From Longimicrobiales bacterium (GTDB lineage: Bacteria; Gemmatimonadota; Gemmatimonadetes; Longimicrobiales; Gaopeijiaceae), in the NCBI GenBank assembly GCA_965219445.1, contig CBDCNQ010000002.1, positions 448,001 to 512,000 of the forward strand: 64,000 bases of DNA, read 5' to 3'. Of this stretch, positions 14,223 through 20,100 are shown in pieces (position 1 is the stretch's first letter; each line of letters opens with the position of its first letter). The notes below the pieces were generated by a model. The model saw only the letters and a program-made list of their open reading frames with translations, made no database searches and was not told the DNA's origin. Both the position numbers and the translations under genes were made by a program.

Positions 14223-14606
14223 ATGACTCGGACGATGCTGGCCGGCAAAATCCATCGGGCGACGGTGACCGAGGTCAACGTCGATTATGAGGGCTCGATA
14301 ACGATCGATCCGAGCCTCCTGGAGGCCTCCGGGATCCTGCCGTACGAAAAGGTCCAGGTTCTGGACATCACGAATGGCGCTCGGGTGGAAACCTACGCCA
14401 TCGAGGGCGAACGGGGGGCGGGTGAAGTCTGCGTCAACGGTGCGGCGGGGCATCTGATCCACGAGGGAGACTTGGTTATCATCCTCCATTTCGCGCAGGT
14501 CGGAGATGAAGAAGCCCCCCACGTCAAGCCGAAGATCGTGCGGGTGGACGCGAGAAACCACATCGCTTCCAAGCGCAGTCCGCTCCAAACCTACGCTGAC
14601 CGCTAG
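14223..14606 (+). CDS. panD: Aspartate 1-decarboxylase
   Basis: KIHRATVT, YEGSITID (Gly-Ser cleavage site), ETYAI, NGAAG. Confidence 0.96.
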   Translation: MTRTMLAGKIHRATVTEVNVDYEGSITIDPSLLEASGILPYEKVQVLDITNGARVETYAIEGERGAGEVCVNGAAGHLIHEGDLVIILHFAQVGDEEAPHVKPKIVRVDARNHIASKRSPLQTYADR

Positions 14607-14635
14607 TTTGCGTCGGTCCATGGGATCCACCTGCC

Positions 14636-15469
14636 GTGCGCGTTAGCATCCAGGACCTTCAAGTGTCGAAGGACCGGGGCGAGCGGTTTCCGGTCCTCAC
14701 GGCGTACGACTACCCCACCGCAAAGATCATCGACGAGCTTGGAATCCCCTTGATTCTCGTTGGGGATAGCTTGGGAAACGTGGTTCTCGGCTACGAATCG
14801 ACGGTCTTCGTGACGATGGATGAGATGCTCCACCACACGAAGGCGGTGACCCGTGGGGCGAAGCAGTCCCTGGTCGTGGGCGACATGCCGTTCATGAGCT
14901 ATCAGACGAATCCTGATGACGCTTTGACCAATGCTGCGCGGTTCCTGCGAGAAGGAGGAGCCCAGGCCGTAAAGCTCGAGGGCGGTGAGATTATGGCGGA
15001 GACGGTCCGCACCCTAACGGACCGCGGTATCGCCGTCATGGGCCACATCGGGTTCACGCCGCAGTCCGCGTATAAGATCGGGCAGCGGGTACAGGGTCGG
15101 TCTCTGGAGGCCGCCCGCAAGCTGGTTCGCGATGCTCAGGCGTTGGATGAGGCGGGAGCGTTCGCGGTCGTGTTGGAGTTGGTGCCCTCAGAGCTCGCGA
15201 AGGTGATTACGGATCGCATAAAGGTGCCAACGATCGGCATTGGTGCCGGCCCCGATTGCGATGCTCAGGTCCAGGTGATTAGTGATATCTTGGGCCTTTA
15301 CACCGATTTCGTACCGCGCCACGCCAAACGGTTCGCGAATCTGGCCGACGCCATCCGTGAAGGGGTGAAGGGTTACGCCGCCGAAGTGATGGACGGTAGC
15401 TTCCCAGCCGAAGAGCATGGCGCCGGGATGGAGGACGAGGTTCTGCGCGCACTGTTGAAGGACCTGTAG
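14636..15469 (+). CDS. panB: 3-methyl-2-oxobutanoate hydroxymethyltransferase
   Basis: LTAYD, LVGDSLG, DMPFMSY, VKLEGG, GHIGFTPQ. Confidence 0.96.
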   Translation: MRVSIQDLQVSKDRGERFPVLTAYDYPTAKIIDELGIPLILVGDSLGNVVLGYESTVFVTMDEMLHHTKAVTRGAKQSLVVGDMPFMSYQTNPDDALTNAARFLREGGAQAVKLEGGEIMAETVRTLTDRGIAVMGHIGFTPQSAYKIGQRVQGRSLEAARKLVRDAQALDEAGAFAVVLELVPSELAKVITDRIKVPTIGIGAGPDCDAQVQVISDILGLYTDFVPRHAKRFANLADAIREGVKGYAAEVMDGSFPAEEHGAGMEDEVLRALLKDL

Positions 15470-15487
15470 TCTCGCCGCTCTTAACGA

Positions 15488-16339
15488 ATGCAGATCCTTA
15501 CTACGATCGACGACTTCCGCTCAGTACGAGAGAAGATCCGCTCCACCGGGTCGTTGGGGTTCGTCCCGACGATGGGCTATCTGCACGATGGCCATCTCGA
15601 GTTGGTACGACACGCGCGTGTGGAGAATGGGAGGGTCGCCGTGTCCATTTTCATGAACCCGACTCAATTCGGCCCGGATGAGGACCTGCGTACTTACCCG
15701 CGCGACTTTGAAGGAGATCAGGCCCTTCTGGAGAAAGCGGGGTGTGACCTCCTCTTCTATCCAGCCGTGGAAGAAATGTACCCGCCCGACGGTGGGGATG
15801 TCCACGTATTGCCGGGGAAGCTGGCGACCGTGCTGGAGGGAGCTTCACGGCCGGGGCATTTCCGTGGCGTTGCAACGGTCGTGGCGAAACTCTTCAACAT
15901 TGTACAGCCAGAAAGAGCCTACTTCGGCCAAAAGGACGGTCAGCAGCTCGTGGTCATACGACGGATGGCACGGGACCTAGACTTTCCTGTTAAGATCGTT
16001 GCCGTGCCCACAGTACGCGAGCCGGACGGGTTGGCTATGTCTAGCCGCAATACCTACCTGAGTCCCGACGAGCGGTCGGGAGCGACCGTCCTCTACCGGG
16101 CCTTGATGCGCGCGCAGGAACTCCACTTGAAGGGAGAGCAAGACGCTAAGGTGCTCCGTGCAGCGGTGTTCGATGTCCTGGCCTCCGAGTGTCTCGCCGT
16201 GGCGGACTATGTTTCGATCGCCGACCCCGATACGCTGGAAGAGCTGGATTGGGTCGATGCCGACGCGCTGGTGTCGCTGGCCGTGCGAATCGGTCAGACT
16301 CGCCTCATCGATAACATCTTGCTAGGATCTCCAGCCTAG
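15488..16339 (+). CDS. panC: Pantoate-beta-alanine ligase
   Basis: FVPTMGYLHDGH, NPTQF, FGQKD, GLAMSSRN, RLIDN. Confidence 0.96.
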   Translation: MQILTTIDDFRSVREKIRSTGSLGFVPTMGYLHDGHLELVRHARVENGRVAVSIFMNPTQFGPDEDLRTYPRDFEGDQALLEKAGCDLLFYPAVEEMYPPDGGDVHVLPGKLATVLEGASRPGHFRGVATVVAKLFNIVQPERAYFGQKDGQQLVVIRRMARDLDFPVKIVAVPTVREPDGLAMSSRNTYLSPDERSGATVLYRALMRAQELHLKGEQDAKVLRAAVFDVLASECLAVADYVSIADPDTLEELDWVDADALVSLAVRIGQTRLIDNILLGSPA

Positions 16340-16644: not shown

Positions 16645-16867
16645 GCCCGAGTCAGGATATTCGCAGCGGACGGTTAAGCGGGGGTTCCGAGTCGATGGCT
16701 GCAGCTGAACTCAGCAGCGACTGACCAAAATTGTTGTCTGTAGAATATTACGTGTTTCCCCCACCTGACGTAGAATTGCACGGACCCAATCAGAGGAGGC
16801 GTTAGTCAGTGAAGTACTTCACTACGGGAGAAGCCTTGGAGGTTGGGTCAATAGGTGTGTAAATGTT

Positions 16868-18112: not shown

Positions 18113-18394
18113 GAGGCATCGTTCCTTTCCCCCGGGCGCTCACCCGGGATTCGCTGGTTAACTTCTTACTACCTAGCGGAAAGGTACGTCGCCTCTTTTT
18201 TTACACACCCTTCTATGGGGCTGGCGGTCAAGACGCACCTTCCCCACGCGCCGTCGGCTCATTTTTTGACCGTCGGCGTCCGCATGGTTTGGATTGCCCG
18301 GTCGACGACTCAGGGTGGGGAGGGGTGCGCTCGCAGGGTCCGCATCGCAGTCCGGAAGACGTTCACAGCCGTCGCGTTCTCCGCTCTGGAGCGG

Positions 18395-18521
18395 GAACCA
18401 TCCTTCTATCTGGGACTCTGTGGCCCATCGCTTCGTTCGGCTCTTCCAGGGGTGCATAGCCTTTGAGTGGGGGCTTGGGCTCTCTGCCCCGGCCCACGGT
18501 GTGTATGGATGCTGTCCCCTG
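18395..18521 (-). ncRNA. Putative bridge/seek RNA core (target-binding loop plus donor-binding loop)
   Basis: Two stem/internal-loop/stem units; loop segments UACACACC and UCAAAGG match the target, AUAGAAGG matches the donor; true RNA ends unknown. Confidence 0.8.
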
Positions 18522-18598
18522 TAACCGGTTCGCTTCCGTTTCGTCGGACCCCATGTTGTGACCGCTTTCGACCCCACGCTCGCCGATCCCAGGCCGGT

Positions 18599-19654
18599 TT
18601 ACTCCGTCGCTTCCAGTCTCTTGGGGTCGTACGCTTCGCCCGTGCGCCACACCGCTAGCACGATCGAGGCGAGCTGACGCGCGATCGTCAGCTTCGCCAG
18701 ATTCGGCTTCGTGCCCCCCTCCAGGAGTCGCTCGTAGTGGCGGTACAAGGGCTCGTCCTCGGCCCGACCGATCACCGTCGTCGCTGCGCCCTTGAACACA
18801 CGCTTCAGCGTGTGGTTGAAGTTCCGATTCAGCCCCCGCGTCTGCTGTACCGGTTCCCTTACCCACCGCCCACCCGGACCCCGCACCCAGTCCGACGAGC
18901 TCCGCATCACGACGCCCAGTCCGCAGTACGCCCAGAACCTGCTCCGGCTCTGGAACCGGTACGGCGTCACCACCACCGGCAGGAGCTCCGCCGTCCGGAT
19001 CGGACCCAGACCCGGGCACGTCTTCAGCACATGCCACTCTCGATGCTTGCGTGCTTCCGCCAGCAACGCCTTCTCGGCCTTCGCCCTCAATGCCACGAGT
19101 GCGTCGTGCTCCTCGTACAGCAACCCGGCCGTCGTCCTGCTCGCTTCCGGCAGCTTGGCCAACCACTCCTCCCGGTCGCGCTTTAAGTAGACCGAGCGCC
19201 CCGCGCCGTAGGCCACTCCTCTCGAGCGCAGCACGCTCTTGAGCCGGTTCTTCACCCGCACCGTGTCGCCGACCAAGAAGTCGTAGCTCTTCGCCCGTTC
19301 CCCCAGCCGCCTGAACTGGCCCCGGTTCTTGTAGACCGTCGTCTCCAGTGATCCGATCCGCAGCTTCTCCGCCAGGGCAAACGCGTCCAGCTTGTCGGTC
19401 TTCGGGCCCCGGCTCTTGCCGACCCCCGCCACCGTCAGCTCCTCCACGTGCGGCTTCAGCACCTCGTACAGCCACCCCGACAGCGTCCCTTCTTCCAGGC
19501 ACAAGTGCCGGTTCCTCGGAATCCCTCGCAGCACCTCGATCAGCGCCCGCGCGTTCGTTTCCACCACCTGCGAGCCCAAGCGCTTGCCGCTGGGGCCTAC
19601 AATCCCCAGCGTGCAGCTCGACGCGTGTGCGTCGAGTCCGATATATCTCTCCAT
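18599..19654 (-). CDS. IS110-family DEDD recombinase/transposase
   Basis: YIGLDAH, LEEG, KTDKLDA, PGLGPIRTA, YCGL..RSSS, IARQLA; GAGGAG RBS before ATG 19654. Confidence 0.95.
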   Translation of the reverse strand: MERYIGLDAHASSCTLGIVGPSGKRLGSQVVETNARALIEVLRGIPRNRHLCLEEGTLSGWLYEVLKPHVEELTVAGVGKSRGPKTDKLDAFALAEKLRIGSLETTVYKNRGQFRRLGERAKSYDFLVGDTVRVKNRLKSVLRSRGVAYGAGRSVYLKRDREEWLAKLPEASRTTAGLLYEEHDALVALRAKAEKALLAEARKHREWHVLKTCPGLGPIRTAELLPVVVTPYRFQSRSRFWAYCGLGVVMRSSSDWVRGPGGRWVREPVQQTRGLNRNFNHTLKRVFKGAATTVIGRAEDEPLYRHYERLLEGGTKPNLAKLTIARQLASIVLAVWRTGEAYDPKRLEATE

Positions 19655-20100
19655 CGGCGTTCTCCTCTTGGATAGGTGGGTTGCTTCCTTGCGCGAACAA
19701 TGATGAACGCGCACCCGTTCCCGGAGGAGAACGCCTCTTCGTCTTCGGGCTGCTTAGCTGCTGATCGGTACCGGTAGCCGTCGCCATGCCCCTATGATGC
19801 CTTTGATCCTAGCTCCAAACAGTGCCACGTATCGAACAAAATAGGGTCTCATGAGACCTCCTCGGTTGAGCGCTACGCGCTTGATTGTGTCTGTGTGTAA
19901 TACGAGCGGAGAGACCTGCCGTCAACCGAAGGGGACGGCCCTGGGGTGCCTCGGCTCGCTCATCGAGTGCCGAACTCGGACAACGGCCCCTGAAATTCTG
20001 ACCCTCGCCGGGTTCGGCTTGACGGCCTCTTTCCCCGCTCGCATATCCAGCCGAGGGCCTTATATTTATGGCCCCTCACCCTTCTCTCCGAGGAGCTCCT

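Follow-up and report, generated by a model that had tools for sequence, protein, structure and literature searches.

A predicted IS1111-type guide RNA whose target-binding loop matches an occupied IS256 inverted repeat

Described systems and the composite element

The terminal repeats of Tn21-family transposons are reported targets of IS4321 and IS5075, and IS1383 is said to target IS1384 repeats. The element described here resembles them as an IS110/IS1111 element that appears to home to the terminal inverted repeat of another mobile element, but its host is an IS256 (Mutator-type) element and its guide uses only the left repeat. RNA-guided insertion into another IS family also likens it to ISEc21, an IS110-group element with a 5′ RNA that targets the catalytic codons of IS3 transposases (available text of PMC11187229). 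The mechanism considered below is taken from the available texts of PMC11208160, PMC11208158 and PMC11187229. As described there for the IS1111 group (ISEc11, ISKpn4 and ISPa11; PMC11187229, PMC11208160), our element has a DEDD recombinase, a short left end and a long 3′ non-coding end holding the predicted guide RNA, together with candidate sub-terminal repeats, a putative junction promoter, a guide order reversed relative to IS621, and natural retargeting among relatives. It differs from that group in forming an unnamed lineage, in its imperfect sub-terminal repeats, and in a left guide that slides by one base; an unnamed relative appears in row 926 of Supplementary Table 1 of PMC11208160. 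With IS621, as far as PMC11208160 and PMC11208158 describe it in the text available, it shares two internal loops (target, then a predicted donor loop), a left guide identical to one target strand and a complementary right guide, a likely CT core, and the DEDD and serine residues. The IS621 RNA lies 5′ of the gene, whereas the RNA predicted here lies 3′; further differences from IS621 are a target read on the opposite strand from the gene, a right guide of 7-8 nt, and a barely recognisable left donor guide.

The mechanism is already published, and targeting of the ends of other elements has already been described. A search of openly available full texts returned no paper on an IS110/IS1111 element in IS256 repeats, and the term IS256 is absent from the main texts of PMC11187229 and 10.64898/2026.08.14.744561. 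On present sequence evidence, the element would add a multi-copy, apparently recently active IS1111-type lineage with readable guides and a long right guide. Its value lies in natural specificity data, possible escape alleles and a possible guide swap: dozens of natural guide-target pairs offer a ready set for deriving specificity rules, such as where the core lies, how the left guide slips by one base and which mismatches are tolerated, and occupied and free IS256 ends amount to a natural mismatch screen.

The window analysed is a 64,000-nucleotide stretch (G000:C2:448001-512000, G000 being the genome under study), and its relevant features are collected in Table 1. The IS1111-type element, at about 18212-19800, splits the left inverted repeat (IRL) of an IS256 element. 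Rejoining the flanks restores an intact IRL, GAGCTAGGATCAAAGGGTGTGTAAA, which pairs with the right repeat (IRR) GAGGTTGGGTCAATAGGTGTGTAAA at 16839. The element junctions share four nucleotides, CCTT; only a short core is repeated, and there are no long terminal repeats or target duplication. Non-coding ends of about 387 nt 3′ of the recombinase gene and 146 nt at the left give the IS1111 layout. The preliminary description had recognised the left-guide/right-guide arrangement as that of IS110 bridge RNAs and had pointed out that IS1111-group elements encode the RNA 3′ of the recombinase. The sub-terminal inverted repeats are imperfect (a GCCCC core with gapped flanks; the IS1111 range is 7-17 bp) and vary together among homologues as judged by eye, for example in L059 and L063. 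Joining the element ends in sequence gives TTGACC-17-CATCAT, a promoter-like junction, and a promoter scan of the linear element gave no promoter-like site. Circle joints were looked for in three contig sets, which drop rare forms, and in one thinly read raw run, and none was found. The left end also carries a 17-bp inverted repeat (19656-19672 with 19719-19735) that would pair over the recombinase ribosome-binding site in read-through transcripts. Just before the IS256, at 14223-16339, are three open reading frames whose sequence motifs suggest panD, panB and panC (pantothenate synthesis).

Table 1. Features of the IS256 composite, in window coordinates
Feature	Position	Strand	Details
IS256 right inverted repeat (IRR)	16839..16863	+	2 mismatches to guide-matching 14-mer
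IS256-family DDE transposase of the host element, 414 aa	16868..18112	-	NF033543, 295 bits, cut-off 150
Split IS256 IRL, inner part	18200..18211	+	left target TACACACC 18202-18209; likely core CT 18210-18211
Long 3′ non-coding end of IS1111-type element	18212..18598	-	predicted bridge/seek RNA, imperfect sub-terminal repeat, -35 box
-35 box TTGACC of predicted circle-junction promoter	18226..18231	-	17 nt from CATCAT
Predicted donor-binding loop	18395..18443	-	3′ of target loop; right donor guide AUAGAAGG 18402-18409
Target-binding loop (predicted)	18447..18521	-	fold, guide covariation, stem covariation
Right target guide UCAAAGG	18460..18466	-	reverse complement of 19800-19806
Left target guide UACACACC	18498..18505	-	identical to plus-strand 18202-18209
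IS110-family DEDD/serine recombinase, 351 aa	18599..19654	-	Pfam, catalytic residues
Short left end	19655..19800	-	-10 box CATCAT 19799-19794, sub-terminal repeat, hairpin over ribosome-binding site
Second core copy (19801-19802), right target TTGAT, outer IS256 IRL	19801..19815	+	junctions

The recombinase scored above the Pfam cut-offs for PF01548 (RuvC-like DEDD) and PF02371 (Tnp domain). Residues D8, E54, D87 and D90 were invariant in 29 aligned rows, and S253 was present in at least 90%. The NCBIfam equivalog NF033542 matched over the full length (E 3e-32) at 112 bits, below its cut-off of 140, a score that we read as that of a divergent IS110-family member. A PDB search with the single recombinase sequence gave no match; the family profile was needed to find IS621, and matched structures of IS621 (8WT6 at E 5e-12) and ISCro4. 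A TIGR-Tas identity was rejected, the Tas endonuclease profile scoring 57 bits against a cut-off of 100, with no repeat array near the recombinase gene. The closest homologues among the matches listed were in Longimicrobiales (Gemmatimonadota) MAGs, and members of the lineage come from Gemmatimonadota, Myxococcota and Acidobacteriota. Plasmid-borne IS110 proteins were at most 27% identical to this recombinase, and a search of viral contigs found no relative. Five G000 copies (C2 522723 and C3 162325 among them) have lost a single base close to the end of the recombinase gene, which puts the final codons out of frame; the alignment stops at residue 345.

The predicted target-binding loop and its guides

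The positions and sequences of the loop and guides were rechecked and found right. Both guide matches proposed in the preliminary description are exact, 8/8 on the left and 7/7 on the right, and some relatives lengthen the right-guide match by one base (AUCAAAGG). When the 386-nt non-coding end was resampled with a first-order Markov model, none of 200,000 resamples held both motifs in order and 20-60 nt apart, the single-motif frequencies being 0.0023 and 0.024. The outer stems described around the internal loop form in the minimum-energy fold and leave both guide strands largely unpaired; the fold of the loop alone is modestly better than that of shuffled sequences (z -2.0, 5 of 200 shuffles being as good). 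The inner stem, given as GUGGG/CCCAC, stood in part: its GG/CC-based helix is conserved across 51 aligned loops, and its GU/AC part, whose bases border or belong to the guides, is not. Covariance across homologues had been put forward as a check, and it was found both in guides, which change with the insertion flanks, and in stems, which show compensatory changes. Such changes occurred in 14 of 26 consensus pairs, counted over 51 chosen loop regions with a structure drawn from the same alignment, the counts being 18, 10 and 23 for the outer target stem and 22 for the donor stem. None of 500 shuffles reached any of five structure measures, and pairing stood at 94%, compared with 36-51% when the structure was slid. 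An Rfam scan of 18150-18650 gave no match at E up to 1. In the predicted donor loop the right guide AUAGAAGG, on the 3′ strand, equals the element's own end at 18209-18216. The same identity held in 75 of 77 loci, a count partly built in by the use of a related degenerate motif as end anchor. The 5′ donor strand matches the other element end by only 4-5 nt, giving a weak left donor guide (GAUG, 18426-18429). Some G000 copies have an extra linker base between the two loops, at window position 18444, which is absent from relatives and from runs X1-X3.

To compare guides with insertion flanks we used two homologue scans, which yielded 157 loci from the best 80 matches of each. With the window included, 135 loci reached the C-terminus; the loop was parsed in 108 and remained unparsed in 27. 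Three misparsed loops and five loci of a divergent clade were left out, and so were three badly anchored ends, two right and one left. End anchors, such as TTG(A/C) near the element end, were set independently of guide sequence. Right guides matched their own flank at 4.32 of five variable bases, against 2.08 after permutation (64 loci, 25 unique guides), and left guides at 6.32 of eight bases against 3.65 (80 loci, 53 unique guides), the left guide being scored as the best of three registers in observed and permuted sets alike. None of 20,000 permutations reached either value, although kinship among the elements inflates both results. The right-guide signal persisted without the commonest guide (22 guides, 4.32 against 1.91). 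Clear cases of the three left-guide registers relative to the core numbered 8, 13 and 15 of 53. Flanks were matched poorly by four of the 53 left guides and three of the 25 right guides. By locus, misfits were L065, L111 and L124 on the right and, with at most five matching bases, L025, L027, L029, L063, L065 and others on the left. One further mismatch was hidden by de-duplication: the upstream flank of L092, of the ancestral GGATAGG type, disagrees with its right guide. A guide-pattern search of 401 genomes of the phylum found only close relatives. The commonest guide pair in the family (L011, L078, L090, L098, L108 and others) points to TTG(G/A)ATTTC-CTATCC-like sites in unrelated DNA; an attempt to match the commonest ancestral target (CCTATCC-type) to a feature gave none.

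The target had been written as a 14-bp site, TACACAC-CC-TTTGA. The site itself held, and the core within it is more likely CT, giving TACACACC-CT-TTGAT. Since CCTT is shared by the junctions, this copy alone cannot fix the core. Among homologues, the base before CT differs in 17 of the 80 right-end junctions that have CTT or CTC; this variability indicates that CT is the shared dinucleotide. A CT core dinucleotide is also described for IS621 in the available text of PMC11208158. The pattern in the related genome G002, where five occupied sites have T at the base before CT and a C to A change at the next position marks free sites, also fits CT. Against it, 11 of 64 left junctions read AAG rather than AGG. 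Moreover, pairing of the donor-loop handshake base with the element's own end is described as inhibiting IS621; under a CT core such pairing could occur here, and the published handshake rules fit CC better. Junction comparison thus favours CT and handshake logic CC, and we tentatively favour CT. In eleven elements (L024, L041, L046, L050, L053-L055, L059, L065, L119 and L129) AAG both precedes the left end and terminates the right guide, yet the right end has GAAG. In these, either the left end is one base shorter or the core is mismatched.

Occupied and free IS256 ends

In G000, 21 of 24 right-end junctions follow an IS256 IRL. Of 25 left-end junctions, 22 continue CCTTTGATCCT and one does likewise minus a base; the others are one off-target junction and one belonging to a divergent element. 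Twenty of the 23 complete copies rebuild to a perfect 14/14 site. The remainder are one true off-target insertion (C2 338311) and two that match on the right only and so resemble the half-match events described in the available text of the preprint 10.64898/2026.08.31.748434. Off-target sites of this guide use the neighbouring left-guide register. No free perfect 14-mer was found in the G000 assembly; related genomes do have free copies, and in run X3 it occurs at a loose contig end. All five free IRLs of G000 are changed, by a substitution in three and by a one-base indel in two; the indels could be assembly errors, and one substitution recurs in run X3, possibly the source sample. All 29 of the 29 IRRs, two mismatches from the 14-mer, are free. 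The 16 full composites include 11 whose IS256 hosts are identical; each of these has its own passenger haplotype, the mean distance between haplotypes being 16.3 columns. This diversity fits separate insertions, and gene conversion could give the same pattern.

Related genomes served as natural controls. In G002, six copies match the guide, five of them in IRLs, and a search for a perfect free site found none; its free IRLs comprise eight with the core C to A change and two with another change. Extraction of IS256 elements covered 13 of 15 loci in G002, six of eight in G001 and one of nine in G003, which was left out of the host comparison. Seven of the eight C to A hosts of G002 were extracted and lie 1-12 bases from occupied hosts, or 22-30 in two cases. 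They have open transposase frames, and five have clean target duplications, indicating that the C to A IS256 copies spread by transposition and stayed free. Free IS256 ends with a changed core hint at target mutations that allow escape. G001 has a single copy, whose altered guides fit the IRR-type junction on one side of it, and seven perfect IRL sites that are free. G003 is a counter-case: alongside four or five matching copies it has perfect IRLs that are free, two of them complete and three truncated. Run X3 likewise contains a perfect empty site, and saturation of perfect sites is not general. G011 and G015 have two and one perfect free sites, respectively, and a matching element was not found in either assembly (91% and 88% complete). 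In G001 the locus L009 (C1 about 4,813,400-4,815,000) carries an element of 95% identity whose guides have shifted towards the IS256 IRR; its left junction is an IRR, and its right junction matches nothing.

Origin of the insertions and a second guide-sharing lineage

We consider it very probable that 18447-18521 is the target-binding loop of a predicted IS1111-type guide RNA, and that its guides, which match the occupied IS256 IRL, direct the recombinase there. Guide-flank covariation, stem covariation and the presence of copies at the guide-matching site support the target-binding-loop reading of the preliminary description, which had suggested a natural RNA-guided recombinase. Its use as a programmable tool, suggested there too, is a fair inference from published IS1111 and IS110 work. 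By analogy with IS621 and ISEc11, excision would yield a circle whose joined ends would form the TTGACC-17-CATCAT promoter, from which recombinase and RNA would be transcribed. The left guide would then base-pair to one TACACACC strand and the right guide to CT-TTGA on the other strand, while the second loop would hold the element's own end. The DEDD residues and S253 would cut and exchange strands at the two-nucleotide core, most likely CT. A split repeat would be expected to hinder movement of the IS256, and would thereby favour IS256 copies with a changed repeat.

The composites could also have arisen from one or a few entries into an IS256 end, followed by copying of the whole composite through IS256 transposition, so that the element hitch-hiked rather than inserted repeatedly under guidance. 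The composites are indeed flanked by IS256 target duplications, and eight of the 20 occupied IS256 copies keep their own; the mosaic passenger haplotypes, too, could have been produced by gene conversion after such co-movement. Nevertheless, 11 identical hosts carry 11 different passengers, and the same insertion base is used in variants of this IS256 with 46 and 154 differences, as well as in an IS256 of 72% identity occupied by another lineage. Hitch-hiking would also leave guide-flank covariation unexplained, and we regard it as unlikely.

It is less probable still that the target is chosen mainly by protein or DNA structure, for example at an end bound by IS256 transposase, with the RNA match a secondary or historical trace. 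One-base sliding of the left guide, among homologues and at off-target sites, would suit such a mode of recognition, and a 2026 preprint reportedly finds a structure component in ISPpu10 targeting. However, targets are unrelated among recombinases about 80% identical, each following its guide, whereas target and guide are both shared between recombinases 69% identical. That the guide matches reflect chance or misplaced element ends is scarcely credible. At 7-8 nt the guides are short, and taken by itself the fold is weak, but the ends are fixed by the 24 and 25 junctions in G000, the Markov resamples never reproduced both motifs in order, the anchors in homologues are guide-independent, and guide-flank covariation (0 of 20,000 permutations) refutes this reading.

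A second recombinase lineage, represented by L092 and L093 and 69% identical in protein to that of this element, shares its IS256 guide pair, and the insertion base of L093 is also the same, in an IS256 of 72% identity. The guide-sharing group was defined before any tree was made. Quick trees with 76 and 31 rows nested each guide group among relatives of the TTG(G/A)ATT/GGATAGG type, and forcing the seven same-guide rows together cost 175 log units (AU p 2.5e-38), so that a single clade was rejected. Diagnostic columns outside the loop follow the clade of each element; inside the loop, two of three agree between this element and the other clade. Both a guide swap between the conserved outer stems and convergence would fit, the latter requiring about a dozen guide bases to change in the same way. 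The old-type flank of L092 fits a swap in place, although metagenome contigs can be chimeric. The shared guide pair is thus a possible natural guide swap which, if true, bears on natural reprogramming of bridge RNAs as a route to new targets. The wider proposal, that target loops are traded as cassettes between distant recombinases in an arms race between IS256 and its guided parasites, is tentative and on balance doubtful.

Several copies show rearrangements. Only 10 of the 25 complete IS256 copies keep their own target duplication, and many match that of another copy; these mismatched duplications indicate that the repeats have reshuffled the genome. The composite in the window (duplications at 16830-16838 and 19816-19824) and an inverted copy about 45 kb away (G000:C2 about 416,900-419,860) have swapped target duplications, matching at 9/9 and 8/9, which points to inversion of the DNA between the two composites. 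Tandem repeats of the element 3′ end, including the whole guide RNA, were seen as a 508-bp unit at G000:C5 1612733-1613241 and as three 458-bp units at G277:C11 428847-429818 (L005). These repeats are joined into the recombinase gene, at positions that match the guide poorly.
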